From: Candidatus Caccoplasma merdavium
GTDB lineage: Bacteria > Bacteroidota > Bacteroidia > Bacteroidales > UBA11471
DNA: 64,000 bases
NCBI GenBank assembly: GCA_018715595.1
Contig: DVLI01000002.1
Span: 6,023 to 70,022 of the forward strand
Reading direction: 5' to 3'
A program made the position numbers and the translations under genes. How positions within the stretch are numbered: the stretch's first letter is position 1; every line of letters begins with the position of its first letter. Shown in pieces: positions 20,079 to 32,773 of the stretch. Under the pieces are notes generated by a model. That model was not told the DNA's origin, ran no database searches, and saw only the letters and a program-made list of their open reading frames with translations.

Positions 20079-21803
20079 TTATTTCTTTTTCTTCTTTTGC
20101 CCTCTCTGCGTTTTTGTTTTTTTGTCACCATCTCCCAGTTTGTCTATACCGAACATGTCTTCGTAGGCACTGAACGGTGTGCGGGTGTCGTTTGCCTCTG
20201 ACGAAGAGGCTCCCGTCTCCGGCTCTCGGCCTAAATTGCCGTTCCCCGGGGAAAATTCACCATTCGGGTCGCTCTCTCGTGGAATCATTCTGAGGCCGTT
20301 GGGGTCGATGGTTCCGGGATTCTGATAGGGACGGACATAGGTGCCCGGCGCGGCAAGCGGTCCTCGGCGGTAAGTGGCGAAGGGGATTCTTACGGGGGTG
20401 TTATCGATGTGCAGACCCTCATTTTCGATGGCATTGCGGACGATGGGGCTGAGTGTGCTCCTTTCGACTCGTATCGGCCTGTTGAAACGATAATAACCGA
20501 TGTCTGGAATGGAGAGGTTGTCGGGGTGAGCGTTCGTTGTGCCATTTATCATTCCCGATTCGTCGGGAATTTCTCTGAATATTTTTCGCGTACCAGCTTT
20601 GTTCATTGCGTGACCAACTGCGGTGGTTCCCAAGCCGGTCATAGCTCCTATGGCGGCACCTCTCAATGCATTCGAGGCGATCTCTCCGGCCGTGAGGTCG
20701 TCGCCTAAAATGAGATTTTGTCCGATGTCGTTAGATGCCGAGCCGATACCTCCGGCGATTCCTTGCGCGGCGATGTTTTTACCCAAGCGGTTGAAAAAGG
20801 GCTGTGTGGCGCGTATGCCTTTCATGGGGAGGAGCAGAGAAGTCCCGATGTCGACGCCGGCACCCAAAGCCGTTTGGCCGAGGCGCTGTGCCGTGGAAAC
20901 ATCTTCTCCGGTTCTTTCTTCGATAAGGTCGGCCTGCATATTGGTGCGTGCCCAGTTTTGAATAGTCGCATCGCCCGTACCCCCTAAGATGGCAAAGGGT
21001 GCAGTAATCGGATTTCTTGTGGCCGCGGCGGTGATGAGTGTTTTGGGAATTTCCCAGCCGATGCTGCCCACCGTACCCCAGCCTTTGGTCGGCCGGTAGT
21101 TTTTCTGTTCTTCGATGGCTTCGGCCATGCGTTGGATGCCCGTGCCGCCTTGGGCGATGTAGTCGTTGCGCCAGGCTTCGGCCTCTTCGGGGGTAGCGCC
21201 CTTGTAGTATTGCTGTTGCATGGCATACAGTCCGCGTATTTTTTCAGAGTCTTTCAAGATGGCCGCTTCATCTTCGGGGGTTCCTTCGCCGGCTTCGATG
21301 CGGTTCTGACGTTCGGCAATGCCTCGGCGCAACGTTTTTATGGAGCGGTTTATCTCCTGCACGTTGCCCCGGCTCAGTTCGGGATTCTCGTCGAGCGCCT
21401 GCAAGCCGTACCGGATTTCGTCTTCGTAATTTATGTTTTTCAGGAAGCGTCCATAACCGTAGCTGTAATTGTTTTTCCATTGGTCGAACGCTTGCTTGAA
21501 ACCTTCCCCGAATGTCGTAATGGGTTGCGGCTCGGCCGGTACACTGTCCGGTTGGACGTTTTGTGACAAGAGGGCGATGTTGGGGGCTTGCGGGTATTCT
21601 CCGGGTGTGAAATGGTACACGGGATAGGCGATGTAGTCTCGCGGGTCGGTCCAATACTCGGGAATGATATATTCGAGCGTGCTTGCCGGTTCGGGAGTGA
21701 CCACCGACAGATTGTCGGCAGGCATTCCGTAGTGAGAATAGTGGCCCAGCTGTCGTTGCAGTGTACTGTCGATTCGGGCCCAAGGTTTATGTGGATTGCT
21801 CAT
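20079..21803 (-). CDS. hypothetical protein, phage internal-virion/ejection-like (glycine-zipper hydrophobic core, poly-Lys C-terminus)
   Basis: 574-aa ORF, last gene of a tightly spaced three-gene operon. 'GAGVDIGTSLLLP...AAQGIAGGIGSASNDIG...LRGAAIGAMTGLGTTAVGHAM' and C-terminal 'DKKTKTQRGQKKKKK'. No family recognised. Confidence 0.7.
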   Translation of the reverse strand: MSNPHKPWARIDSTLQRQLGHYSHYGMPADNLSVVTPEPASTLEYIIPEYWTDPRDYIAYPVYHFTPGEYPQAPNIALLSQNVQPDSVPAEPQPITTFGEGFKQAFDQWKNNYSYGYGRFLKNINYEDEIRYGLQALDENPELSRGNVQEINRSIKTLRRGIAERQNRIEAGEGTPEDEAAILKDSEKIRGLYAMQQQYYKGATPEEAEAWRNDYIAQGGTGIQRMAEAIEEQKNYRPTKGWGTVGSIGWEIPKTLITAAATRNPITAPFAILGGTGDATIQNWARTNMQADLIEERTGEDVSTAQRLGQTALGAGVDIGTSLLLPMKGIRATQPFFNRLGKNIAAQGIAGGIGSASNDIGQNLILGDDLTAGEIASNALRGAAIGAMTGLGTTAVGHAMNKAGTRKIFREIPDESGMINGTTNAHPDNLSIPDIGYYRFNRPIRVERSTLSPIVRNAIENEGLHIDNTPVRIPFATYRRGPLAAPGTYVRPYQNPGTIDPNGLRMIPRESDPNGEFSPGNGNLGREPETGASSSEANDTRTPFSAYEDMFGIDKLGDGDKKTKTQRGQKKKKK

Positions 21804-21814
21804 GGATAATGGGG

Positions 21815-22282
21815 TTAGATGGGTGAATACATTCTTTCGACCTGTTTCTCGGCCTCTTGCGGGGTCATGCCGCGGGCAATCATCAGGTTGAAAAGGTGGA
21901 ATTTCTGTTGGTCCGACGCATCGCGTGTTGAGCCTGTCGGCTCAACGGGGGTGAGTCGTCGGGGTGGGGGCGTCATTTGTGACGGCAGTCGCCGCAAGAT
22001 ATAGAGAAAGCCCTCTTGTTGCGGATAGTCGCGGTGTGAACGGCAATGTTGCACGATAAGTTCTTCGAGTCGTTGGCCATTGTCGCCCGGCAGTTCGATT
22101 TCATTCTCTTTCCGGGGCCTTTTTGCCAGCAGGGTGAGCGTTTCGCCCAGTTGGTCGAACAGGTTGGCCGGGTTGCTGTTACCGTGCAACTTCGACATGA
22201 GACTGTTGAAAAAGCCTTTTCCGGTTGCCACGCCGTGACGAATGTCGCGTGTCTCGCGGTCGGCATGTTCTGTTTTTTTCAT
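21815..22282 (-). CDS. hypothetical protein (155 aa)
   Basis: ATG start. Gaps of 21 nt and 11 nt to the flanking ORFs on the same strand. No recognisable motif. Confidence 0.55.
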   Translation of the reverse strand: MKKTEHADRETRDIRHGVATGKGFFNSLMSKLHGNSNPANLFDQLGETLTLLAKRPRKENEIELPGDNGQRLEELIVQHCRSHRDYPQQEGFLYILRRLPSQMTPPPRRLTPVEPTGSTRDASDQQKFHLFNLMIARGMTPQEAEKQVERMYSPI

Positions 22283-22303
22283 ATCTCCTCCTTTCTTATG
22301 GGT

Positions 22304-22834
22304 TTAAACTCCTGCTCCCAGTGCGCTGCCGGCACTTCCTACAAGGGCGGAGGCAATTCGTGTGTAATTGTCGAGTGCTTGTGACATGGAGTCGTGTGCC
22401 GCTTGTCGGAACTGGTTGGCTTGTTGCGCCCACAGGTTATATTCCTGGTTGTTGAGGGCCATGGAGTTGTTGATGTAATTGTTGAGCACGTTGCTTTTCC
22501 AGTTCGACATGTTTGCGCCTATCTGGCTGTAAGTGTTGCCCATGAGGGTGGCGGCATTGTTTTGTTGGGCGGCGAGAGCTTCGGGCGTGGAGCCCATGAC
22601 GGCGGCCATGCTGTAATTCATCGCGTTTTGTTGACGCATCTGGTCCTGCATGCTGCGCATCATCGATTGCACGTCCGAGCGGTTCATGTAGTCTCCGTAA
22701 TACTCGCTGTTAAAGAAATTGTCGAGTTGCGCTTGCTGGCTGTTGAGCGTGTTCAGTGCCTGGGTTTGAGCGTTTTCGGCTGCACGTCGGTTACGGGCGT
22801 TGCGGATAATGCCGCTGAGTAAATTGACAATCAT
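22304..22834 (-). CDS. hypothetical Q/N/M/A-rich protein (176 aa) with a Gly/Ala-rich C-terminus
   Basis: First gene of the operon. 'AAQQNNAATLMGNTYSQIGANMSNWKSNVLNNYINNSMALNNQEYNLWAQQANQFRQ' and C-terminal 'ALVGSAGSALGAGV'. The composition resembles phage scaffold or internal proteins, but this is inference. Confidence 0.6.
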   Translation of the reverse strand: MIVNLLSGIIRNARNRRAAENAQTQALNTLNSQQAQLDNFFNSEYYGDYMNRSDVQSMMRSMQDQMRQQNAMNYSMAAVMGSTPEALAAQQNNAATLMGNTYSQIGANMSNWKSNVLNNYINNSMALNNQEYNLWAQQANQFRQAAHDSMSQALDNYTRIASALVGSAGSALGAGV

Positions 22835-22908
22835 AATATCTCTTCATTTTTTTTGAGGTTAATACTGCTTTTTGTAAAGAATCACATCACGCCGCAAATA
22901 TCACCCCG

Positions 22909-22916
22909 TAAATTTG
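22909..22916 (+). promoter_or_regulatory. -7 box TAAATTTG upstream of the small ORF/terminase operon
   Basis: Matches TAnnTTTG, 36 nt before the ATG at 22952. Confidence 0.5.
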
Positions 22917-22951
22917 TGACTCGATGTGATATTTATAAAATCGTAGAAACT

Positions 22952-23200
22952 ATGAAGAAAAACCAATCATTGCCGGACGGAAATCCGGCACACGGACCCC
23001 TCGACCGTCGCGAAGAGATGCTCGAACTTTGCTATAACCGACTGAAAGAATTGATACCCGAATGCACCAGTGAAGTAAATCTGTTGAAGTGCATCGAGAT
23101 TCTCGAAAAACAGGGCCATGCTTCTGCCCAGGCGGAAGGCGAAGCGGCCTTGTCGGTGATTACCGACACGCTCGACCGACTGGCGGCCCTGCGCCGATGA
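22952..23200 (+). CDS. hypothetical helical protein (82 aa); a small-terminase-like role is suggested by position only
   Basis: ORF 22853..23200 trimmed to the ATG 'MKKNQSLPDG'. It ends 2 nt before the terminase-frame ORF opens. Confidence 0.45.
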   Translation: MKKNQSLPDGNPAHGPLDRREEMLELCYNRLKELIPECTSEVNLLKCIEILEKQGHASAQAEGEAALSVITDTLDRLAALRR

Positions 23201-23264
23201 TTTGATAAAAAACACACCCGAGGTCGCCTTTGCCGCTGCATCTTTGCCGATAAAAAAAGGAATC

Positions 23265-25274
23265 ATGAATCTGACCGCAGACGAAATCAATGACATGCTG
23301 GCCGAGAACGACCGTCGCAAGCGTCTCCGTTCGCAGCCTTATCACCCCGAGACGGGCGAAGGGGCTGTCGTGGGCGAACGCATCGTCATGCATCTGCCCG
23401 ACGCACCGATACCGTTGCAGCATATCCCGCGGGAGATGCTCGACGAGGTCGAGCTCGTGCAGGGGCTGCGCCGGTGCGGTTCCATCGCCTCTTTTATCGA
23501 GAAGGAACTGGGACGTTTGCCCTGTACGCATTGGAAAGAAGAGGTGTGGCGGCGTTGGGTGAAGGTGCGTATCCGGTACGATTTCGAGTTTTGGGCCGTG
23601 ATGTTTGTCCGCATCAAGGACAAGATGGGCGATGGCGATGTGCCGTTCCGGCTCAATCTCCCGCAGCGCAAGTTGCTCATGCGGCTCGAATCGCAGCGTC
23701 GTGCCGGGAAACCCGTGCGCCTGATTTTGCTGAAAGCCCGCCAGTGGGGCGGTTCCACGCTCGTGCAGCTCTATATGGCCTGGATACAGCTGGTGCACCG
23801 CAAGAACTGGCACAGTGTGATATGTGCCCACCTCAAAGATGCGGCAGCGCATATAAAAGGAATATACACCAAGTTGCTCGACAATTATCCCGCTTGGCTC
23901 ATGCCCGATGGGGTGGCTCCCCGCTTCCGCCCATACGAGCGTACCGGCAATACTTCGGTCATCGAAGGGTCGGGTAGCCGGGTGACTGTCACCTCGGCCG
24001 AGACCCCCGAGTCGGTGCGGGGGTCCGATGCCGTCATGGCCCATCTTTCCGAGGTCGCTTTTTGGCCCCGCACCCGACTGCGCTCGCCCGAGTCGCTGGT
24101 GCGCGCCATCTGCGGGTCGGTGGCTTTGCTGCCCGACTCGCTCGTGGTCATGGAGAGCACGGCCAACGGCACGGGAAACTATTTCCACCAGGAGTGCGAG
24201 CGCGCCAAGCGGGGCGAGAGCGACAAGGAGTTCTTGTTCGTTCCCTGGTACGACATCGAGATGTATGCCCTGCCGGTCGACGACCCCGCGGCCTTTGCCG
24301 CGTCGCTCGACGACTACGAACGTTCCTTGTGGCAGCGCGGCGCCACCCTCGAAGCGATTGCCTGGTACCGGCAGAAGCGCAAGGAGTATCCCGACCATGC
24401 CGACATGATGGCCGAATACCCTTCCGATGATGTCGAGGCGTTCAATCACAGCGGTGAACGTGTCTTCGACATACGGCAGGTGCAGCGGTTGCGGGAGAAC
24501 TGCCGACCGCCCGACCGGGTGGGCGAACTTTATGGCGCCAAGACCTTCGGCCGGGAATCGCTGCAAGAGCTGCATTTTGTCGATGAGGCGGCCGGGAAGT
24601 TGCAGGTGTGGGCACTGCCCGACGATGCGGCGCGAGTCCGTGACCGTTATGTCGCCGTTGTCGACATCGGTGGCCGGTCGGTCTCGGCCGACTATTCGGT
24701 GATTGTCGTCTTCGACCGCTATTGGCAGATGTATGGCGGGGTGCCCGAGGTCGTCGCACAGTGGCGCGGGCACATCGACCACGACCTGTTGGCCTGGAAA
24801 GCGGCCCAAATCGCCGCATTCTATCAGGAAGCCCTGTTGGTCATCGAGAGCAATACCCTCGAAACCGAACACACCGACGGCGAGCATACCGAGTATATAC
24901 TCGATACCCTCTCCGATGCCTATTCGCACCTCTATGCGCGCACCTCTTCCGAGATGATTCGCTCCTCGGCGCCTTCGCGCTGGGGCTTTCACATGAACCG
25001 TTCGACCAAAACGCTTATCATCAACCATCAGATACAGATGCTGCGCGAGAGCGGCTATGTAGAGCGAGACCTGCTGGCCTGCTACGAGCACGACGTTTTC
25101 GAACGCAAACCCAACGGCAGTTTCGGCGCCATGGACGGCCACCACGACGACATACTCATCACCCGCTGCATCGGCACCTATATCTGTTATACCGAGCCGT
25201 TGCCCGTACCGGTCGGCGATAACCGAAAGAGCCGCCGCCGACCATCACAACCTCTCAGTGAGGCCAGTATGTAG
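23265..25274 (+). CDS. terL: phage terminase large subunit-like protein
   Basis: ORF 23202..25274 opens with TTG; the first ATG is at 23265. P-loop-like 'LLKARQWGGST' (23733..23759), Walker-B-like 'AVMAHLSEVAF' (E at 24051..24053), 'VVMESTANGTGN' coupling motif, then RNase-H-like nuclease signatures 'YVAVVDIGGRS', 'LLVIESNT', 'GHHDDILITR'. Confidence 0.72.
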   Translation: MNLTADEINDMLAENDRRKRLRSQPYHPETGEGAVVGERIVMHLPDAPIPLQHIPREMLDEVELVQGLRRCGSIASFIEKELGRLPCTHWKEEVWRRWVKVRIRYDFEFWAVMFVRIKDKMGDGDVPFRLNLPQRKLLMRLESQRRAGKPVRLILLKARQWGGSTLVQLYMAWIQLVHRKNWHSVICAHLKDAAAHIKGIYTKLLDNYPAWLMPDGVAPRFRPYERTGNTSVIEGSGSRVTVTSAETPESVRGSDAVMAHLSEVAFWPRTRLRSPESLVRAICGSVALLPDSLVVMESTANGTGNYFHQECERAKRGESDKEFLFVPWYDIEMYALPVDDPAAFAASLDDYERSLWQRGATLEAIAWYRQKRKEYPDHADMMAEYPSDDVEAFNHSGERVFDIRQVQRLRENCRPPDRVGELYGAKTFGRESLQELHFVDEAAGKLQVWALPDDAARVRDRYVAVVDIGGRSVSADYSVIVVFDRYWQMYGGVPEVVAQWRGHIDHDLLAWKAAQIAAFYQEALLVIESNTLETEHTDGEHTEYILDTLSDAYSHLYARTSSEMIRSSAPSRWGFHMNRSTKTLIINHQIQMLRESGYVERDLLACYEHDVFERKPNGSFGAMDGHHDDILITRCIGTYICYTEPLPVPVGDNRKSRRRPSQPLSEASM

Positions 25275-25327
25275 AGAAAAATAATAAAATCGGCAGCAAA
25301 AAATTTGGGTTATTGAAAATTAGTGCA

Positions 25328-25335
25328 TAACTTTG
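25328..25335 (+). promoter_or_regulatory. -7 box TAACTTTG upstream of rplU-rpmA, with an ~80-nt leader containing a hairpin (25338..25367)
   Basis: Matches TAnnTTTG. The leader hairpin is 'gctcttat'/'ataagagc'. The box lies only 54 nt after the terminase stop. Confidence 0.5.
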
Positions 25336-25419
25336 CGGCTCTTATTCCGTGACGGGTACATAAGAGCGGTTCACGACGAACGGCCACCCGGCGGAGGTAA
25401 CCTGTAATTATTTAAACAG

Positions 25420-25731
25420 ATGTACGTAATTGTAGAAATCCAAGGACAGCAGTTCAAAGCCGAAGCCGGCAAGAGACTCTATGTTCACCGTTTGGACGCT
25501 GAGCAAGGTGCTGCTGTCGAGTTTGACAAAGTATTGTTGGTCGACAACGACGGAGCCGTAAAAGTTGGTGCTCCCACCGTAGAAGGTGCAAAGGTCGTTT
25601 GCGAAGTCCTCTCTCATCTCAAAGGCGAACGTATCATCGTCTTCAAGAAGAAAAGAAGAAAAGGTTATCGTAAACGCAACGGTCACCGTCAATGCTTTAC
25701 CGAAGTGTTAATTAAAGATATTGTTGCTTAA
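25420..25731 (+). CDS. rplU: 50S ribosomal protein L21
   Basis: 103-aa ORF. '[25 protein letters not shown]...[16 protein letters not shown]' is typical of L21. Confidence 0.96.
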
Positions 25732-25754
25732 ACCACTGATTAAACGAGAAGAAA

Positions 25755-26012
25755 ATGGCACACAAGAAAGGTGTCGGTAGTTCAAAGAACGGCCGCGAAT
25801 CAGAAAGTAAAAGATTAGGTGTGAAAGTCTTTGGCGGACAAGTAGCGAAAGCTGGAAATATCCTCGTGCGTCAGAGAGGTACGGTACACCACCCCGGAGT
25901 AAACGTAGGTATGGGCAAAGACCACACCTTGTTTGCACTCATCGACGGTGTCGTAGTGTTCCGTAAGAAACAAGACAACCGTTCATACGTTTCGGTTGAA
26001 CCCCAAAACTAA
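25755..26012 (+). CDS. rpmA: 50S ribosomal protein L27
   Basis: 85-aa ORF. '[34 protein letters not shown]' is typical of L27. Confidence 0.97.
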
Positions 26013-26070
26013 GAATATTCCTCAGAGGTGACGCTTGTCGTTGCAAACAAGGAACATAGAAAAGTCAAGG

Positions 26071-26109
26071 AAACAGGGTATCGGTTATGCCGATACCCTG
26101 TTTCGTTTT
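26071..26109 (+). terminator. rho-independent terminator after rpmA
   Basis: Stem 'aaacagggtatcgg'/'ccgataccctgttt' followed by 'cgtttt'. Confidence 0.65.
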
Positions 26110-26203
26110 GAGGACTCGCTTTCTTCCCGCAGAGAGGTTCCTCTTTTGACTCTTTTTCACCTCTTTATCGACAATAATAATTTGAGGGTCGCCTCGAAAA
26201 GCG

Positions 26204-26211
26204 TATCTTTG
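26204..26211 (+). promoter_or_regulatory. -7 box TATCTTTG upstream of the phosphatase gene
   Basis: Matches TAnnTTTG, 28 nt before the ATG at 26239. Confidence 0.5.
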
Positions 26212-26238
26212 CGCCCAAATATAAATTCGGTTTAGCCT

Positions 26239-26739
26239 ATGACGATGCATGCCACCCCCGAACGTCCTTGTCGCGTACTTTTTGTCTGCTTGGGCAACAT
26301 CTGCCGTTCCCCGGCCGCCGAAGGCATTATGCGACACATGGTCGAGGAGCGTGGCCTCTCGACCGCGTTTTACATCGACTCGGCCGGTACTTACGGCGGC
26401 CATGCCGGAGAGCTGCCCGATGCCCGCATGCGCAGCCATGCCGCGCGGCGGGGTTATCGTCTCGACCATCGTTCCCGTCCCATAACGGCTGACGACTTCG
26501 ACCGCTTCGATGTCATCATAGGCATGGACGACATGAATATCGAGAACTTGCGCCGTTTGGCACCCGATGCCGACTCCCTGTCGAAGATTCACCGCATGAC
26601 CGACTATGCTCGCCGGTATGGCCACGATTATGTGCCCGACCCCTATTACAGTGGAGCCGATGGTTTTGAGCTGGTGCTCGATTTGCTCGAAGATGCGTGC
26701 GGCGGGCTGATAGATGCCCTTTCGGCCCCCGATGCTTAA
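26239..26739 (+). CDS. low-molecular-weight protein-tyrosine phosphatase
   Basis: 166-aa ORF. P-loop 'VLFVCLGNICRSPAAEG' (CX5R) and downstream 'DPYY' motif. Confidence 0.9.
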   Translation: MTMHATPERPCRVLFVCLGNICRSPAAEGIMRHMVEERGLSTAFYIDSAGTYGGHAGELPDARMRSHAARRGYRLDHRSRPITADDFDRFDVIIGMDDMNIENLRRLAPDADSLSKIHRMTDYARRYGHDYVPDPYYSGADGFELVLDLLEDACGGLIDALSAPDA

Positions 26740-26766
26740 TCGGCAGGAACTTAATTTTTTTTGCTT

Positions 26767-27477
26767 ATGAAGAAATGGATATTTTTGATATGTCTCCTTT
26801 TCTCTTGTGAGAGTTGGATAGCTGCTCGCTCCCACACCGATGGAGATACTTTGACACAGATTTTCCCCGACATCGAGGCGGTGCGACAGGCGGTGCAGAA
26901 TCCCGAGTCGCCCTGTTTCTATCCACGGCTCATTGCCCGGTACATGCAGCGTGATACCACGCTTACCACCGAGGAATACCGTTGCCTCTATCTGGGCTAT
27001 TCGTTCCAAGACGATTATGACCCTTATCGGGTGTCGTCTTACGAAATGTCGCTCGATACCCTTTATCGGCGCAATGACCTCACGGCGGCCGAATGCGAGA
27101 AACTCATTCGATATGCCGGTCAGGTGTTGGCCGACAATCCTTTCGACCTGCGCCGCATGGCCGTCCTGGTCTATGCCAACACGATGCTCGGCAATCACGC
27201 CGAAGTGAATTTCTGGCAGACACGCATTCACCATCTTGTCGATGCCATACTCTCTACCGGAGACGGTCGCACGCCCGAGACAGCCTGGTATGTTATCGAG
27301 CCGGTACATGCCTATGATATACTCAATACGTTAGGTGTCGTTGCCGAAGCCTACGAGTTCGAGCCCCCATGTTACGATTACATTCAGGTTTATGACCTCA
27401 TTGGCAATGCTCGCGGGTTTTACTTCAATGTCAGCCGCATACTCGAAGAGTACCAGCGTAAGTTTGGCACGGAGTGA
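26767..27477 (+). CDS. DUF4919 domain-containing secreted protein
   Basis: ORF 26761..27477 trimmed to the ATG 'MKKWIFLICLLFSC' (signal peptide). Overall similarity to Bacteroidales DUF4919 proteins is from memory. Confidence 0.7.
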   Translation: MKKWIFLICLLFSCESWIAARSHTDGDTLTQIFPDIEAVRQAVQNPESPCFYPRLIARYMQRDTTLTTEEYRCLYLGYSFQDDYDPYRVSSYEMSLDTLYRRNDLTAAECEKLIRYAGQVLADNPFDLRRMAVLVYANTMLGNHAEVNFWQTRIHHLVDAILSTGDGRTPETAWYVIEPVHAYDILNTLGVVAEAYEFEPPCYDYIQVYDLIGNARGFYFNVSRILEEYQRKFGTE

Positions 27478-27497
27478 GCGGCTGAGCTGGAACAAGG

Positions 27498-27537
27498 AAA
27501 TGAAAAAGGAGGGGAAATTTCCCCTCCTTTTTCATTT
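27498..27537. terminator. perfect 40-bp palindrome (20-bp arms) after DUF4919
   Basis: 'aaatgaaaaaggaggggaaa|tttcccctcctttttcattt', followed by 'ttg'. Confidence 0.65.
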
Positions 27538-27619
27538 TTGTATCTTGAATATCGGAAAAATCCGGTTCAGCGGTTTGTCGGGCAATGTTATTTCCAAACC
27601 GTCGGCCGTGCGGGAGAAT

Positions 27620-27793
27620 TTTCGCGTTGCGGAACCATTCGGGTACCTGATAGGACGACAATGACTCCCATGTGGGTCGGAATTGCCCCTGCATCATGGG
27701 CTCATCGTCTTCTGTGACGGGTACTTGATAAGTCTGTGCCGACATGAGTCCGGCGGAGAAAATCAGTGATAAGGAAAAGAGTTTGAGTTTCAT
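27620..27793 (-). pseudogene. 5' fragment of a GH29 alpha-L-fucosidase gene (signal peptide plus ~40 conserved residues, then truncated)
   Basis: 'MKLKLFSLSLIFSAGLMSAQ...FRPTWESLSSYQVPEWFRNAK' matches the GH29 N-terminus. After K58 the expected 'FGIF.HWG' is replaced by unrelated sequence. The ORF stays open to 27431, running through the palindrome. Confidence 0.7.
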
Positions 27794-27822
27794 GGCAGTT
27801 TTTCAGGTATCTCTGTTTTTAA

Positions 27823-27830
27823 CAAAGATA
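27823..27830 (-). promoter_or_regulatory. -7 box TATCTTTG retained upstream of the fucosidase fragment
   Basis: The reverse complement of 'caaagata' matches TAnnTTTG, 30 nt upstream of the ATG at 27793. Confidence 0.45.
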
Positions 27831-27895
27831 GTGATAATAAGAGACAAATAGATATTTGCCGGGAAATTTTCACACGACAATGATGAGCCCCCTTT

Positions 27896-27940
27896 CTCCA
27901 TGACGAGTGGCGGGAAATCTTCCCGCCACTCGTCATGGAG
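27896..27940. terminator. perfect hairpin (21-bp arms, 3-nt loop) just downstream of the portal-like gene
   Basis: 'ctccatgacgagtggcgggaa atc ttcccgccactcgtcatggag'. No clear U-tract. Confidence 0.5.
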
Positions 27941-27961
27941 AGAATTGGACAACAAAGAAAT

Positions 27962-29926
27962 TTATTGTGCCGACAGCAGGGCTTGCAAAAGCGGTTGCTG
28001 TAATGCCTGGGCTCCATTTGAGCCGTTCGGGCTTGTGAGCCCGAGGGCTTGCTGCTTTTGTCTCTCTTCTTTTTCTTTCTCGATGCTTTGCAGCAGACGG
28101 TCGGAGAAGGGGAAGGCTCCGTTTTCGAGCAAGGTTTCGAGGGAGATTTGTCCCATGCGGAAGAGTTGCAGCAAGAACTCGTTCGAGGCCGAACGGAATA
28201 CCGGCGAGGCTGTCGACTCGGTGATGTTGATGTCGACCTCGGCGTGCTGCACTTCGTCGGGCGTGTAAGGTACCTGGCTCTCGTCGACCTTGTCGCCGGC
28301 AATGTCGAGGTAACGTTGGCGGTCGTAGTATTGCTGCACGGTTTTCAGCAGTTTGGTGTCGCGATTTTCCCGGAAACTTTTGAACGACTCGAAGATGTCG
28401 ATGAGGTTGATGCCGGCATTCTGCACCTGTTGCATGTAGAGGTTGGCCGGCGTCCCGGGCGAGGGTGTCTGTCCCTGCATGGCGCCGTGCACGCCCGATA
28501 TGTCGTCGAGCAGTTTCATTTGCAGGTTGAGCAGTTCGTATGCGCCCACGTTGGTGGCGTTCACGGCAACTTGCTGCGGCAGGGCTTCGCCCGGCTTGGG
28601 CTTGAAGAGAATCACCCCGTTGTAGCGGGTCCACTCTTCGGCGATGTCTTCGATGGTCATGCCATCGGGAATTTGGTTCTCGGGGAAGAGAAGTACCCCT
28701 TTGGCGCTCGACCCCATGATGAAGTCGACCAGGGTGATGAGGCGGTTGATGTAGCGTTGCTGGTCGATGACATCTTCGACAAATGAGTGTATCTCCCCGT
28801 CGATGAGCGGGTAGAGTTTGAAAGCATAAGGGTGTTCGCCGTGCCAGTAGGGCGTTTCTCCCTCGGCCAGTACCTCCCCGAAGGGGGTGAAGAAGCGGTA
28901 GTACCAGAATTGGTCGACAAACCATTCGGTATCGATGAGGGGTACATCTTCCCGTGCGATGCCTCTGCTGCGGGCCTCGTTGATGCGCCGGCGGTTTTCC
29001 TCGGCGATTTCGTCGGCACGGGCGACCTCTTCCTTGTAATAGCTTCCCGAGAGCCGGTCGTGGCACCTGAGCCGTTCCCGGCTTTCGAGACGCCACACCT
29101 CGATGATGCGGCACAGGTGCGTGTCGGCGGGCATGAAAAAGTCGATGTTGTCGAGTCGTTCGCTCGACAGGTTCTCGTAGTTTTCCCTGATGTGGCTCTC
29201 GGTGGCGTTGCCGTACATTTCGCGCAACTCTTCTCCGCGTTTGCGTGAGCCGTGGGCAAAGTGCGTGAGCACTTGGGCGACAGGCACGTCGTGCAGTTCG
29301 CCGATGAGGGTGCAATCCCAGTGTCGCGGGTCTTCGATGTTGTTGAAGAAGATGCGATTGGGATTTACCTCGTCGATCCACACATCGGTTTTGTCGTGCC
29401 GTTTCCCGTACCCTATTTTATGGAAGCAGCTTCCCGAGATGAGGAACTCTTCGAGCGAGCGTCCGTCGATTTCCCACAGGTGGTTGTGTTGGTGCACATA
29501 TTGCAGGGCCGCGCTCAGGACCTCGCTCAGCGGCTGGTCTTTCCGGTTGCGGGCGATGCACACCGGTTGGGTCTGTACCGAACGGAACTGGCCCACGACA
29601 TTTTTTACCAGTTTGCGTATCAGGTTGTTTTTCAGCGGGACTTTCCCTTGCTCTTTCAAGTATTGCTCTTCGCTCAGGGTGCGTCCGTCGGGCAGGTCGA
29701 TGTTGTCGCCCCATTGGTTGCCGAAGGTGTAATTGCGGCTGCGGGTGCGGGTATGGCGGTAACGGTCGAGGTTGTCCCAGGCGCGTTTGGCTTGCCACAA
29801 GACTTCGAGGTCGGTCTCGTCGGGCTCTTTTTTCCCTTGTGTATCGACCGAGGCGATGCTTTTCCCGGGCTGCTGTTGCGGCATCAGGTTCCGGTTGTTG
29901 AAAATGCGATAATTGGTTTCTTTCAT
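27962..29926 (-). CDS. phage portal-like protein
   Basis: ORF 27962..30091 trimmed to the ATG 'MKETNYRIF'. The layout is portal-like: N-terminal 'AKRAWDNLDRYRHTRTRSRNYTFGNQWGD', stem/tunnel region 'VEDVIDQQRYINRLITLVDFIMGSSAKGVLLFPENQIPDG' and 'NVGAYELLNLQMKLLDDISGVHGAMQGQ', and a helical acidic/Q-rich C-terminus. Confidence 0.7.
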   Translation of the reverse strand: MKETNYRIFNNRNLMPQQQPGKSIASVDTQGKKEPDETDLEVLWQAKRAWDNLDRYRHTRTRSRNYTFGNQWGDNIDLPDGRTLSEEQYLKEQGKVPLKNNLIRKLVKNVVGQFRSVQTQPVCIARNRKDQPLSEVLSAALQYVHQHNHLWEIDGRSLEEFLISGSCFHKIGYGKRHDKTDVWIDEVNPNRIFFNNIEDPRHWDCTLIGELHDVPVAQVLTHFAHGSRKRGEELREMYGNATESHIRENYENLSSERLDNIDFFMPADTHLCRIIEVWRLESRERLRCHDRLSGSYYKEEVARADEIAEENRRRINEARSRGIAREDVPLIDTEWFVDQFWYYRFFTPFGEVLAEGETPYWHGEHPYAFKLYPLIDGEIHSFVEDVIDQQRYINRLITLVDFIMGSSAKGVLLFPENQIPDGMTIEDIAEEWTRYNGVILFKPKPGEALPQQVAVNATNVGAYELLNLQMKLLDDISGVHGAMQGQTPSPGTPANLYMQQVQNAGINLIDIFESFKSFRENRDTKLLKTVQQYYDRQRYLDIAGDKVDESQVPYTPDEVQHAEVDINITESTASPVFRSASNEFLLQLFRMGQISLETLLENGAFPFSDRLLQSIEKEKEERQKQQALGLTSPNGSNGAQALQQPLLQALLSAQ

Positions 29927-30086
29927 AAAAATATAAAATTGGTTTGACGTGGAGCGGCCGGGCCGCAATGATTTTTCACGGGACAAATAAAGCGATGAAT
30001 TTTCCCCGCGGCATGTGAAGTTTATAAAAAGCGTCCGCCTGCGACCGATTTGATAAATTCCCCACGGAGCCCCTTGGCTCGTGGCA

Positions 30087-30094
30087 TACATTTG
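30087..30094 (+). promoter_or_regulatory. -7 box TACATTTG upstream of the 867-aa gene
   Basis: Matches TAnnTTTG, 35 nt before the ATG at 30129. Confidence 0.5.
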
Positions 30095-30128
30095 TTGCTG
30101 TCATAACCAACTTTTAAATTACGAAAAT

Positions 30129-32732
30129 ATGCAAGACCAAAAACGATTACAGATAACCGGTATGTCGGCTCTTTTGCCGCCGGCAATTTCAACCGACGGG
30201 GAGTGCAGTCATGTTGTCAATCTCCGTTGCCGCGATGGCGTGTGGTCTCCAGTCGGCACGCCGGCCTGTTGCTACACGCCGACCGATGCGTCGCATCGCC
30301 TTGTCTTCGTCCATGTGAACGAGGCTTACAAGCACTATTTTACCTACGACGGTACGACTCTCTTTTATGAAGCAGAGGAGACCGATGGCGCGATTGTGCC
30401 CCTGAAAAGCCCTTCGGGTTTTCAAATCTCCGGATTGGAGCGCATCGAGGCGGTGGGAAATGCCATGGTTGTCTTCACCGATAAGGAGATGCAATACCTT
30501 TTCTATGTCGACGGCACCTATCGCTTTCTCGGAGAGCGCCCCGATTTTCCCGAGATTACATTTACCCTGAAAGAGAAGACCTCCCGCTCGGAATTTTGGA
30601 ACGACTATGTGCTGGTCTCCTCTTCTACGCCCGATGCAAACTTTATCCTCTCCGACAACGATAAGTTGCGGTTCACCTCCTTGGTTTACGGTACATACAG
30701 CCGGGCCAAGAGTGCGTTGCTCGACGATGGATACCTTTCTTTCCCGTTTATGGTGCGCTATGCCCTGCGGCTTTATGACGACAGCTATATCTATCCCTCG
30801 CCCCCTGTGCTGATGTGTGGTTCCGATGTTTTGCCTTTCGATAATAACTTGGCTTCGATGTGCAAGGTCGATGATAAGAAGGTGGTGCAACTCTATCACA
30901 ACCCCTTCACCCTCTCGGGAGAGAAGGTCTATTACACCGTGAACAAGGCCAATCTCGAAGCGTGGAGCGATGTGATAAAGGGGGTTGATGTCTTTTTCTC
31001 CCGGGAGTTGCCCGTAGTGAAAGATGCTACCATCGAGTCATATTACCTCGTTCAGGAGCCTGACGGAAATGGAGACCCGGTGCCGGTCATGCGGTTTGCG
31101 ATGCCTTTGCTTCCGGACGATGAACAACGGGAGCAGATTGTGAACGAGTCGCTCTTTTATAAAGTGGCCTCGTTCGACATAGAAGAGTTGACGGCCGACC
31201 CCGAGACGTCGGCTCCGTTGACCTATACCTGCTCGCTCTCGAACCTTGTGCAGCAGCGCAATCTCCCGCTCGACAACTTCTCACTGCATACCCTTCGGGC
31301 CAAGGAGTCGTGTGTTTACAATGGACGCCTTCACTTGGGGAATGTGACGACCCGCTTTTTCGATGGGTATCCGCTTTCACTTTTCTCGACGGAACAAGAG
31401 AATTATCGAGGAAGTACACCTACATCTCATTCCATGCAGGGCTTTATGCGGATAACACTGAAAGGAACGACAGGGCAGAGCCAGATGTTTGTCCCTTTCG
31501 AGCCTGGTACATATCGACTCACACCTTATCTTTCCTATCCCGACAGTCGGGCTGTGAGAATTGAGATTTTGGGCTTTAATCAATCGGGATCTCCCCGTTA
31601 TTATGGCCGATTTCCACTGAAAGCCGCACCCAACGAAAACATGGCATATTATCTCAATCCCGAATTTTCTCCCATACAACTGACCTTGGACTTTTCTTCA
31701 ATGGACGGGTCATTTCAACCTGAGGTAAAAAATCCCGAAGAGCACATTCCCGGCAAGTTGCGGGTATCGGCCGTGTATAATCCGTTTACCTTCCCCCAGA
31801 CCCTCACCTATACGCTCTCCTCGGGGGCGATTCTCGGCATGGCGGCGGCAACGGCAGCCCTCTCGCAAGGACAGTATGGCGAGTTCCCCCTTTATGTCTT
31901 TACCAGCGATGGCATATGGGCTTTGCGGCAGGGCAGCGGCGAGGTGTTGTATGCCAGCCAGTCGCCGGTGAATCGCGAAGTGGCCCTTTCGCCCCGACAC
32001 ATCATCTCGGTCGATGATGCCGTGCTCTATCTCTCCGACCAGGGATTGATGGCCTTGCTCGGTTCCGATTCGGAACTCTTGTCGCGACCCTTCGACGGGA
32101 CTCCCGATACCCTGCCGGGGCCGGCTCTTTCGGTGCTCGATGCAATGGAGCCGGTGATGACGTCGGCCGTCGACAATACGCCCTTCCGCACGTTTGTGGA
32201 GAATGCCGAGATAGGATATAATTACATCGAGAAGGAGTTGCTTTTCCTGTCGCCGGGCTATTCCTATATGTGGGTGTTCGATTTGTTGTCGGCGCAATGG
32301 ACGCGGCGCAGTGCCTCGTATGTCTCGTTTTATTCGCTTTATCCGACATTGTTGGCCGTCGATGATGAGTCGCGGGTGTATGACCTGTGCGATGAGCAGG
32401 CGGCCAATAGGGTGGAGGTGGCGCTTGTGACACGGGCCATCAAGCTGTTGCCCGATGTGGAGAAACGGATACCCCGGTGGGCCTTGCGTTGCAGCGACGA
32501 TAACGCCTCGCTCGCCTTTTCGCTTTGGGCCTCGAACCGCGCCGATGAGGGATATGGAGCCATTTTCAGGGCACGAGCCGAAGGGGCTATCCCCGGCCGC
32601 GTTTCCTTGCGTACCATAGCTCCGCCATATAAATATCATCGGCTTTCGCTCTCGGGCGTGGTCTCTTCTCGGTTCCATCTCGATGCCGTCGATGTGGTGT
32701 ACGAGCCGGTGTATTCATCGAAGCTCATATAA
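30129..32732 (+). CDS. large hypothetical beta-rich protein (867 aa), possible podovirus tail-tube/adaptor-type structural protein
   Basis: ORF 30081..32732 trimmed to the ATG 'MQDQKRLQITG'. Propeller-like repeats ('VFTSDGIWALRQG', 'LYLSDQGLMALLG', 'YMWVFDLLSAQW'). No catalytic motif recognised. The function is inferred from position next to the portal gene. Confidence 0.6.
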   Translation: MQDQKRLQITGMSALLPPAISTDGECSHVVNLRCRDGVWSPVGTPACCYTPTDASHRLVFVHVNEAYKHYFTYDGTTLFYEAEETDGAIVPLKSPSGFQISGLERIEAVGNAMVVFTDKEMQYLFYVDGTYRFLGERPDFPEITFTLKEKTSRSEFWNDYVLVSSSTPDANFILSDNDKLRFTSLVYGTYSRAKSALLDDGYLSFPFMVRYALRLYDDSYIYPSPPVLMCGSDVLPFDNNLASMCKVDDKKVVQLYHNPFTLSGEKVYYTVNKANLEAWSDVIKGVDVFFSRELPVVKDATIESYYLVQEPDGNGDPVPVMRFAMPLLPDDEQREQIVNESLFYKVASFDIEELTADPETSAPLTYTCSLSNLVQQRNLPLDNFSLHTLRAKESCVYNGRLHLGNVTTRFFDGYPLSLFSTEQENYRGSTPTSHSMQGFMRITLKGTTGQSQMFVPFEPGTYRLTPYLSYPDSRAVRIEILGFNQSGSPRYYGRFPLKAAPNENMAYYLNPEFSPIQLTLDFSSMDGSFQPEVKNPEEHIPGKLRVSAVYNPFTFPQTLTYTLSSGAILGMAAATAALSQGQYGEFPLYVFTSDGIWALRQGSGEVLYASQSPVNREVALSPRHIISVDDAVLYLSDQGLMALLGSDSELLSRPFDGTPDTLPGPALSVLDAMEPVMTSAVDNTPFRTFVENAEIGYNYIEKELLFLSPGYSYMWVFDLLSAQWTRRSASYVSFYSLYPTLLAVDDESRVYDLCDEQAANRVEVALVTRAIKLLPDVEKRIPRWALRCSDDNASLAFSLWASNRADEGYGAIFRARAEGAIPGRVSLRTIAPPYKYHRLSLSGVVSSRFHLDAVDVVYEPVYSSKLI

Positions 32733-32733
32733 A

Positions 32734-32773
32734 AGTCCCCCTCGCCGCACACTCCTGTGCGGCGAGGGGGACT
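32734..32773. terminator. perfect bidirectional hairpin (18-bp arms) shared by the 867-aa gene and sufS
   Basis: 'agtccccctcgccgcaca ctcc tgtgcggcgagggggact'. Confidence 0.65.

Follow-up and report, generated by a model that had tools for sequence, protein, structure and literature searches.

Phage satellites, such as the capsid-forming phage-inducible chromosomal islands (PICIs), carry partial head and packaging gene sets and rely on functions encoded elsewhere; they are mobile elements with integrase and replication genes, are excised on induction by a helper, and are present in some strains but not in others. In RcGTA of Rhodobacter capsulatus and other alphaproteobacterial gene transfer agents (GTAs), phage-derived genes are fixed in the chromosome at several loci, inherited vertically and held under purifying selection, with no integration or replication genes and with a small protein encoded 5' of the large terminase (TerL) that has no recognisable DNA-binding domain (PMC12946183 and general knowledge). 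A candidate domesticated element of a dominant gut commensal, FpGTA of Faecalibacterium prausnitzii (Bacillota), is a single 10.5 kb operon encoding a TerS-like protein, TerL, portal, scaffold and capsid, for which there are particle data, long-read evidence of packaging and a reported podovirus-like morphology (PMC12946183, Nat Commun 2026). Horizontal gene transfer is very high in Bacteroidales and is usually credited to conjugative elements (PMC12946183). In one recent preprint, ~19% of the bacterial DNA recovered from virus-like particles of the mouse gut came from Muribaculaceae (10.64898/2026.07.08.737213). Here, seven phage-type genes arranged in two blocks were analysed within a 64 kb stretch of the Bacteroidales genome Candidatus Caccoplasma merdavium (contig DVLI01000002.1), the whole of which is referred to as the window. 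In all likelihood these genes belong to a vertically inherited, selectively maintained system of phage derivation, whatever its mechanism. A probability of about 50% is assigned to the reading in which the two blocks are loci of a multi-locus GTA-like element with its capsid gene elsewhere in the genome.

The genes of blocks A (G574 to TerL) and B (portal and B867), with the elements between and beside them, are as follows.

20079-21803, minus strand: G574, 574 codons, an intact open reading frame (ORF), last gene of the Q176-S155-G574 operon
21815-22282, minus strand: S155, 155 codons, an intact ORF, middle gene of the operon
22304-22834, minus strand: Q176, 176 codons, an intact ORF, rich in Gln and Asn
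22835-22951, no strand: divergent promoter region between Q176 and p82, read from the sequence
22952-23200, plus strand: p82, 82 codons, an intact ORF for a small, helical, acidic protein
23265-25274, plus strand: TerL, 669 amino acids (aa), an intact ORF with profile and fold matches to large terminases
27962-29926, minus strand: P22-type portal, 654 aa, a full-length, intact ORF
29927-30128, no strand: divergent promoter region between portal and B867, read from the sequence
30129-32732, plus strand: B867, 867 aa, an intact ORF, homologue of gp33 of phage BF1-TP2
32735-32772, no strand: perfect 17 bp hairpin between the convergent B867 and sufS, read from the sequence

The order across both blocks is G574-S155-Q176 / p82-TerL-rplU-rpmA-PTP-DUF4919-portal / B867-sufS, in which the core gene names were taken from reading of the translations. 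A tRNA-Gly gene flanks block A, as had been stated, and is located 129 nt from it. The preliminary description, made from the sequence and its translations, had counted seven uninterrupted ORFs, and these were recovered with exactly the coordinates and codon lengths given there and with no internal stops. Phage homologues were found for five of the seven proteins, the exceptions being S155 and p82, and no further recognisable phage-derived gene is located within the 64 kb. When all ORFs of the related phage loci (type A, described below), including integrase and replication genes where present, were compared with the window by BLAST, only Q176, TerL, portal and B867 matched. Pfam and PHROG scans likewise recognised no integrase, repressor or replication gene in or beside the blocks, in agreement with the earlier claim. 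Three defining features of a GTA or viriform were found here: chromosomal fixation with vertical inheritance, no recognised autonomy genes either in and beside the blocks or in related loci, and purifying selection on all seven genes, with ratios of nonsynonymous to synonymous substitution (dN/dS) of 0.04-0.31. The likeness to RcGTA extends to the distribution over several loci and to the small protein 5' of TerL. RcGTA, however, is of HK97-like siphovirus origin, whereas the genes described here originated independently, from a Bacteroides phage with a P22-type portal and an SU10-type capsid, and their host belongs to another phylum, Bacteroidota. Dispersal is also far more extreme, down to single genes, and no capsid gene has been located in the lineage of the window. 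FpGTA is the nearest published gut analogue; the present element is distributed over multiple loci in Bacteroidales, displays no homology to it in the comparisons made, and, unlike these agents, is known from its genes through comparative genomics alone. As in satellites, a partial head and packaging set is present, but it is immobile, syntenic with core genes and old. An integrase and replication genes of its own and variable presence at attachment (att) sites, which define a satellite, were not found, and it is therefore not a phage satellite. No Bacteroidales element of this kind, nor any system with this layout, is described in the literature searched, in keeping with the preliminary description.

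TerL was matched to PHROG 2 with E = 1.1e-18. A profile of the window protein and 18 homologues aligned to T4 gp17 such that ARQWGGST corresponded to the Walker A motif SRQLGKT, MAHLSE to the Walker B and catalytic motif MIYIDE, and HDD to the nuclease HDD; the motif residues were invariant across the 19 sequences. The Walker A motif is without the usual GK[ST] lysine, a trait of the entire family, viral members included. For the AlphaFold model (mean predicted local distance difference test score, pLDDT, 73), the top fold matches in the PDB were all large terminases: T4 gp17 at E = 1.6e-19, followed by T7, HK97 and Sf6, with isolated nuclease domains at a template modelling (TM) score of 0.77 by Foldseek. 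Profile alignment and fold search agree with the original reading of ATPase and RNase-H-like motifs in order, and the 669-aa protein is identified by both as a two-domain, T4 gp17-like large terminase with an ATPase and an RNase-H-like nuclease. The family comprises >7,800 database clusters. A scan of one genome per species yielded at least 592 TerL loci, and clustering of all ORFs of the best 80 of these revealed three contexts, designated types A, B and C, the last of which includes the window. In ~20 type-C loci p82 is situated directly 5' of TerL. This protein had no Pfam or PHROG match and no hhalign relation to the phage proteins c6, c11 or c12, so that the small-terminase role suggested by the place it occupies is read from position only.

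The portal matched Pfam PF16510 (P22_portal) with E = 1.6e-37 and 129.8 bits (gathering cut-off 26.1) over positions 5-579 of the 594 in the profile, and PHROG 156 with E = 1.7e-71. It is 62% identical to BARVI_04680 of Barnesiella viscericola. By these profiles the 654-aa protein is a full-length P22-type portal, and the portal-like assignment made at the outset is upheld by a near full-length match above the gathering score. Profile and structure searches, which had been proposed as a check on the terminase and portal folds, support both. B867 matched PHROG 32516, a family with no characterised function, at 1.6e-72; a second, weak match was to a "tail appendage" family, and the B867 family profile retrieved gp33 of phage BF1-TP2 with E = 1.6e-78. 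In ~25 Muribaculaceae loci it adjoins or overlaps TerL as in an operon, and it is probably a virion or packaging-associated component. The single-sequence AlphaFold model of B867 (pLDDT 33) was unusable, and a profile search of the PDB with this protein returned nothing meaningful.

The minus-strand operon of block A was also traced to phage genes. The Q176 family profile matched gp70 of BF1-TP2 at 5e-22 and the gene 3' of TerL in the IMG/VR phages L081-L086 at ~4e-31, with no hhalign signal to phage c6. The phage operon in question, gp70-gp69-gp68, opens with gp70 and closes with the gene for a giant virion protein of 3,633 aa. G574, glycine-rich and with a poly-Lys tail, weakly matched PHROG 342 (internal virion protein, E = 7e-5), and its family profile matches giant phage proteins, with an hhalign probability of 94% to residues 2323-2449 of BF1-TP2 gp68. 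From these profile matches, G574 is regarded as related to, but far shorter than, the giant "polyvalent" virion protein, internal or ejected, of BF1-TP2-like phages. Prion matches of G574 in the PDB profile search were dismissed as being due to its glycine-rich low-complexity stretch. S155 is kept in L001-L004, L008, L009, L012 and L022 and holds the operon position of phage gp69. It had no Pfam or PHROG match and no hhalign signal to gp69 or to c61, the small gene at the position of S155 in Barnesiella loci. For S155 and p82 alike, no relatives were detected outside the type-C lineage. Since Q176 corresponds to gp70 and G574 aligns within the giant gp68, the operon appears to be a miniature of the phage internal or ejection-protein operon.

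Type A is a complete temperate phage with the order c4-c10-MCP-c5 / c6-c11-TerL-c12 / portal-giant protein. Its major capsid protein (MCP) is of the SU10 type (PF17236), c4 is an SU10-type adaptor, c5 the scaffold, c6 a small protein 5' of TerL and c11 a rhomboid protease, and the giant protein of 2,400-3,600 aa contains "polyvalent protein" domains. Isolated representatives are the Bacteroides phages BF1-TP2, BKO1-TP3 and BS-TP4 (PQ571263, PQ571269 and PQ571277), the TerL of which is 44-46% identical to that of the window. BF1-TP2, of which no description was found in the literature searched, is 68 kb long and carries integrase, repressor and replication genes and an endolysin. In GenBank its TerL (PQ571263, L161:20118-22145) is labelled "tail spike protein", likewise those of BKO1-TP3 and BS-TP4. 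These phages share with the window homologous TerL, portal, B867 (gp33), Q176 (gp70) and part of G574 (gp68), and TerL is located near the portal in both. They differ in being 64-68 kb long with integrase, repressor and replication genes and in possessing a capsid, scaffold and adaptor beside TerL, a rhomboid protease and an endolysin, none of which is present in the window; moreover, the giant protein of 2,400-3,600 aa is there represented by the 574-aa remnant G574. A contiguous genome, integrase, repressor and replication genes, and MCP-c5 beside TerL, which define a BF1-TP2 prophage, are absent, and the window therefore does not contain such a prophage. In 80 IMG/VR viral contigs with this TerL family, a capsid gene is located beside TerL wherever the contig reaches, and none of these TerLs is >53% identical to that of the window. 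Complete related phages are present in Muribaculaceae and widespread in Bacteroidales. By homology, the system goes back to a temperate phage that resembled BF1-TP2, was ~65 kb long and had a P22-type portal and an SU10-type capsid.

In a TerL tree of 160 sequences with 40 bootstraps, all capsid-less chromosomal TerLs were placed in one clade (38/40 bootstraps), separate from the viral TerLs. Within it, two subclades were each recovered in 40/40 bootstraps. Type C includes Barnesiella, Coprobacter, Caccoplasma and some ruminant metagenome-assembled genomes (MAGs), with the layout G574-(S155)-Q176 / p82-TerL; type B includes Muribaculaceae and allies, with B867 and TerL adjacent and often overlapping. 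The tree and the synteny described below indicate that the system is inherited vertically by several Bacteroidales families, namely the Caccoplasma/Coprobacter/Barnesiella group and Muribaculaceae and allies. Integration, replication and regulatory genes of the phage were lost, and the remaining genes are dispersed among housekeeping genes. The latter differ by lineage and include genes for polyprenyl synthase, NMN transporter, ferritin, EPSP synthase, seryl-tRNA synthetase and PrmC. A lone portal gene in the complete B. viscericola DSM 18177 chromosome is flanked on one side by an outer-membrane beta-barrel gene, itself adjacent to miaA, and on the other by a ferritin gene; an operon of Q176-like, 166-aa and G574-like proteins is 4 kb away. 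In another complete genome, of 3.16 Mb, it is TerL that stands alone, with a DpnII restriction-modification system on one side and a TonB-dependent receptor gene on the other. Since the genes are intact as singletons, they must act in trans and must be useful.

The arrangement in the window is also conserved. The full order from G574 to sufS recurs in three other species (L001-L003) whose TerL is 89-92% identical; a Coprobacter MAG (L007, TerL 78% identical) has the same order from TerL onward; and L011 and other relatives keep it in part. In Coprobacter tertius the order sufBCDS - B867 / portal was found. Among the loci examined, none of the relatives had a complete prophage here, and none had an empty site. 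Pairwise dN/dS values (Nei-Gojobori) were 0.04-0.11 for TerL, 0.06-0.16 for portal, 0.07-0.16 for B867, 0.06-0.13 for Q176, 0.06-0.15 for p82, 0.24-0.31 for S155 and 0.23-0.28 for G574, compared with 0.06-0.12 for the host neighbours PTP, DUF4919 and sufD. Values near 1, which had been named as a sign of decay, were looked for, and those obtained are far below it. Purifying selection on TerL, portal and B867 matches that on the host genes nearby, while S155 and G574 evolve faster (0.23-0.31). For the closest pair, with L001 (dS ~0.6-0.8), dN/dS was 0.069 for TerL and 0.059 for sufS, and the dN of TerL (0.05-0.07) tracks that of pgi and sufS, as expected under co-divergence with the host. Codon usage correlates with that of the host at r = 0.89 for TerL and r = 0.92 for portal, with codons and GC content at third positions (GC3) indistinguishable from housekeeping genes; the smaller genes fit the host less well. 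TerL is intact and full length in 52 of 54 capsid-less chromosomal loci, each from a different species. The two disrupted copies (L011:9935-11934 and L072:9971-11857) contain an in-frame stop or frameshift, for which real loss or assembly error is possible; in L011, an 801-codon ORF is inserted between p82 and TerL.

Two explanations are weighed by these data. The first of the two offered in the preliminary description was a recent prophage remnant, scrambled by rearrangement and decaying neutrally. It could draw on the lack of an integrase, capsid or lysis gene nearby, on the tRNA-Gly gene close to block A, and on the two disrupted TerLs. However, TerL, portal and B867 have dN/dS of 0.04-0.16, equal to that of host genes; synteny with rplU/rpmA and suf is kept across species, and indeed genera, with TerLs 75-92% identical; TerL and portal have the codon usage of the host; nearly all TerLs are intact; and the chromosomal TerLs are monophyletic, apart from all viral contigs. 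Adjacency to tRNA-Gly was found just in the window and in L003, the one close relative with a locus extending to that side, and the gene was accordingly rejected as the ancestral integration site. A decaying remnant is therefore rejected as highly improbable. The second explanation is an active mobile element, a PICI-type satellite or integrative island equipped for packaging. In its favour are the lack of a capsid gene to accompany the packaging genes and the tRNA gene beside block A, but no integrase, excisionase, replication or repressor gene was recognised by Pfam, PHROG or type-A ORF BLAST, several species have the genes at one and the same place among their housekeeping genes, the blocks are split by core genes, and nothing above the 53% TerL identity was found in IMG/VR. 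It is considered the least credible of all the explanations. The other option in the preliminary description, a retained, domesticated module with its capsid gene elsewhere or with none, is favoured by the selection described here and by a chromosomal capsid-adaptor-portal module of the same origin in the sister lineage, described below.

Conserved signals also link the two blocks. As first reported, a TAnnTTTG box was found before both plus-strand units; its distance from the ATG was measured as 34-35 nt: TAAATTTG at 22909-22916, 5' of p82, and TACATTTG at 30087-30094, 5' of B867. Both divergent regions hold strongly conserved blocks in an alignment across relatives (10 orthologous regions for Q176/p82), and both contain a common 17-nt element (ATGTGAnnTTTATAAAA), present as ATGTGATATTTATAAAA at 22924-22940 and ATGTGAAGTTTATAAAA at 30013-30029. 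In each, the element is located ~30 nt from a conserved [G/A]CAAATA block, which would serve as a putative -7 box of the minus-strand unit. With up to 2 mismatches, just these two sites were found in the 64 kb against 0.08 expected, a figure that demonstrates exclusivity only, since the motif was derived from the two sites themselves. In ~1 Mb of related loci, most matches are positioned in exactly the two intergenic regions, in Caccoplasma, rabbit MAGs and Coprobacter; the motif of the portal/B867 region recurs in L001-L003, L007 and L165. From these shared motifs the two blocks look co-regulated. Furthermore, an inverted repeat in the Q176/p82 region (ATCACATC...GATGTGAT, 22881-22930) brackets the -7 box of p82. 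In L008 and L009 both arms are changed (AACATC...GRTGTT) with complementarity preserved, and the repeat looks like an operator or a 5' leader hairpin. At the other ends of the plus-strand units, the reported signals were likewise located. The rplU box is at 25328, 54 nt past the TerL stop, with no plus-strand terminator between. The perfect 17-bp hairpin between B867 and sufS lies at 32735-32772; it is likely a shared terminator, and was missed by a consensus terminator scan because it has no T-run.

A capsid gene was looked for in the window and beyond. Profiles for MCP, c5, c4, c10 and c6 (capsid, scaffold, adaptor and small proteins), built from phage copies and from chromosomal copies, detected nothing in the 64 kb window even at E <= 10, which confirms that no major capsid or scaffold gene is present in or beside the blocks. 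A first search for MCP homologues found close phage relatives only. When the capsid profile was run against 1.84 billion representative proteins, 757 relatives were obtained, including a subgroup of shortened capsid proteins (~400-490 aa) in host context. Look-ups of clusters and gene contexts placed the capsid genes either in chromosomes of the sister lineage or in true phages. In Paramuribaculum and other Muribaculaceae these belong to a module with the order mini-scaffold - MCP - adaptor - short portal - c6, neighboured by DprA, nucleoside phosphorylases, RND efflux, TrmD, PolA, Era/Der, SerRS or relA genes. In cultured Muribaculum intestinale the module is located on contigs of up to 2.2 Mb. 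A metagenome scan with proteins of the chromosomal capsid module yielded many long contigs with compact clusters, and its 80 best loci belonged without exception to the sister type. Some clusters have the order B867-TerL-MCP-(adaptor)-portal, others the order ftsQ-ftsA-ftsZ / B867 - mini-scaffold (c5', what is left of the scaffold in shortened form) - MCP - adaptor (c4) - portal - c6 / polysaccharide genes / TerL. Every TerL and portal of the compact clusters is of type B. In some type-B loci (L040 and L045), a phage endolysin is situated between B867 and TerL. The module of the sister lineage thus represents a chromosomally fixed set of head and neck genes, as in a gene transfer agent. The length of the chromosomal MCP of M. 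intestinale (P0503, P0624-P0637) varies: it is 407 aa in many assemblies and elsewhere 297, 271 or 345 aa, or split into 210 + 195 aa, the 297-aa form being commonest (197 contigs), which could reflect strain-level decay, differences in start calls or frameshifts. On a 3 kb metagenome contig (L260:406-2331), a short capsid gene of the chromosomal type (427 aa) is divergent from an ECF sigma-70 family gene, which could be a regulator of the system.

Several points weigh against a GTA-like element whose capsid gene is placed elsewhere. In ~27 type-C loci covering ~0.5 Mb, capsid, scaffold, adaptor and c6 were not found even at E <= 10, and the chromosomal capsid genes that can be placed all belong to the sister lineage. 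As the phage capsid gene is always beside TerL and is absent beside TerL in 54 of 54 chromosomal loci, deletion rather than relocation is possible. The ejection-protein operon was not seen in sister-lineage loci. In addition, the TerL tree was built by neighbour-joining only, dS is saturated (>1) in most of the pairs from which dN/dS was calculated, and the taxon labels of the relatives, mostly MAGs, are record titles. The whole analysis is one of comparative genomics, and particle building and DNA transfer are predictions from it. The two lineages may keep different gene subsets, and the capsid gene of the window lineage is either at a further locus or lost.

Two further explanations were considered. 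It is a serious possibility, though not the likeliest, that type-C genomes truly lost capsid, scaffold and adaptor, yet kept the motor, portal, B867 and ejection proteins under strong purifying selection, and apparently co-regulated, since before the genera diverged; this would represent a new kind of host-phage relationship, a chromosomally fixed machine that commandeers the capsids of infecting relatives or moves DNA without a capsid. A helper-dependent module of this sort would take over the procapsids and tails of infecting BF1-TP2-like phages, diverting packaging to host DNA, sabotaging the phage, or both, like an immobile domesticated satellite. It would account for a window and type-C loci in which no capsid, adaptor or scaffold gene was seen, and for a retained set consisting of exactly the unique-vertex, motor and internal proteins. 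The type-C portal, moreover, has kept its full length and an identity of ~50% with phage portals, unlike the shortened, divergent portal of the sister lineage, and suitable helpers could be provided by the complete related phages of Muribaculaceae and other Bacteroidales. On the other hand, the capsid absence covers the window and ~27 loci and is thus unproven genome-wide, the sister lineage keeps its own capsid gene, and purifying selection at the family level would need a steady supply of compatible helpers. To our knowledge, there is no precedent for a non-mobile satellite. Dependence on a helper is thus rather unlikely. Co-option without particles, for example as an anti-phage decoy or an abortive-infection system made from structural proteins, or as a DNA-translocating envelope machine of TerL, portal and ejection proteins, is less plausible again. 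Selection that maintains the genes with no recognisable capsid gene nearby, and single genes that persist alone in some genomes, would be in keeping with it. However, TerL has kept its ATPase and nuclease residues alongside several virion proteins, and the shared promoter-region element suggests co-regulation of the two blocks, all of which fits an assembled machine better than a decoy; moreover, capsid, adaptor and endolysin genes are kept in the sister lineage.

For the preferred multi-locus GTA-like element, the following process is proposed. The products would cooperate in trans, providing a GTA-like particle with its unique vertex and its packaging machinery. p82 and TerL would form the packaging motor, pumping DNA via the portal ring into a capsid, the shell of which would be encoded at a third locus or borrowed. 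Q176, S155 and G574 would be internal proteins that are loaded in the head and then ejected to lead the DNA into the recipient cell, while B867 would be a virion or neck component. With the genes dispersed and no phage genome remaining, whatever DNA is packaged would be host DNA. We infer an independently derived, extremely dispersed, podophage-type GTA-like element in Bacteroidota, which, if true, would be the first of its kind in that phylum. Barnesiellaceae, Coprobacter and Muribaculaceae are abundant gut commensals, and the genes would provide a genetic handle for testing capsid-mediated transfer of host DNA in these families. Dispersal to single genes would imply that a domesticated phage machine can outlive the complete loss of operon structure. 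For annotation, it is of concern that such genes can be miscalled prophage fragments.

Further observations relate to the surroundings of the genes. Between the DUF4919 gene and the portal stop, a 120-codon ORF (27431-27793, minus strand) contains a signal peptide and a start that reads like a GH29 alpha-L-fucosidase and ends abruptly; its label as a truncated fucosidase was likewise taken from reading of the translation. No homologue of this fragment was found by tblastn at the corresponding position in any related locus. The gene for DUF4919 (26761-27477, plus strand), whose product is predicted to be a lipoprotein, is found in the stretch from TerL to portal in the window lineage and directly after B867-TerL in one Muribaculaceae MAG (L072:12545-13402). 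No phage locus examined contains it. It may be left over from the site of the original insertion, or may be a partner that has so far gone unrecognised. In three rabbit-gut MAGs (L004-L006:11999-13147), an opposite-strand gene of 378 aa is inserted between TerL and rplU; there, the gene order 3' of rpmA is unlike that of the window, with no portal within reach. A PHROG scan of proteins of no assigned function beside the Barnesiella and Muribaculaceae modules gave endolysin as its sole match. In Paramuribaculum (L168-L170), dprA, involved in DNA processing for natural transformation, is located ~3 kb 5' of the MCP module, possibly by coincidence. A pair of genes for relA and a 7TM-HD receptor was observed directly 3' of the MCP-adaptor-portal-c6 module in L176, L221, L222, L245, L247 and L253, and 5' of the lone TerL in Barnesiella-type genomes, either directly (L016) or across the three-gene DpnII cassette (L167). 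Ferritin is beside TerL in L017-L020 and L044, and beside the portal in B. viscericola. The adjacencies of relA/7TM-HD and ferritin may be traces of one ancestral locus broken by rearrangement.

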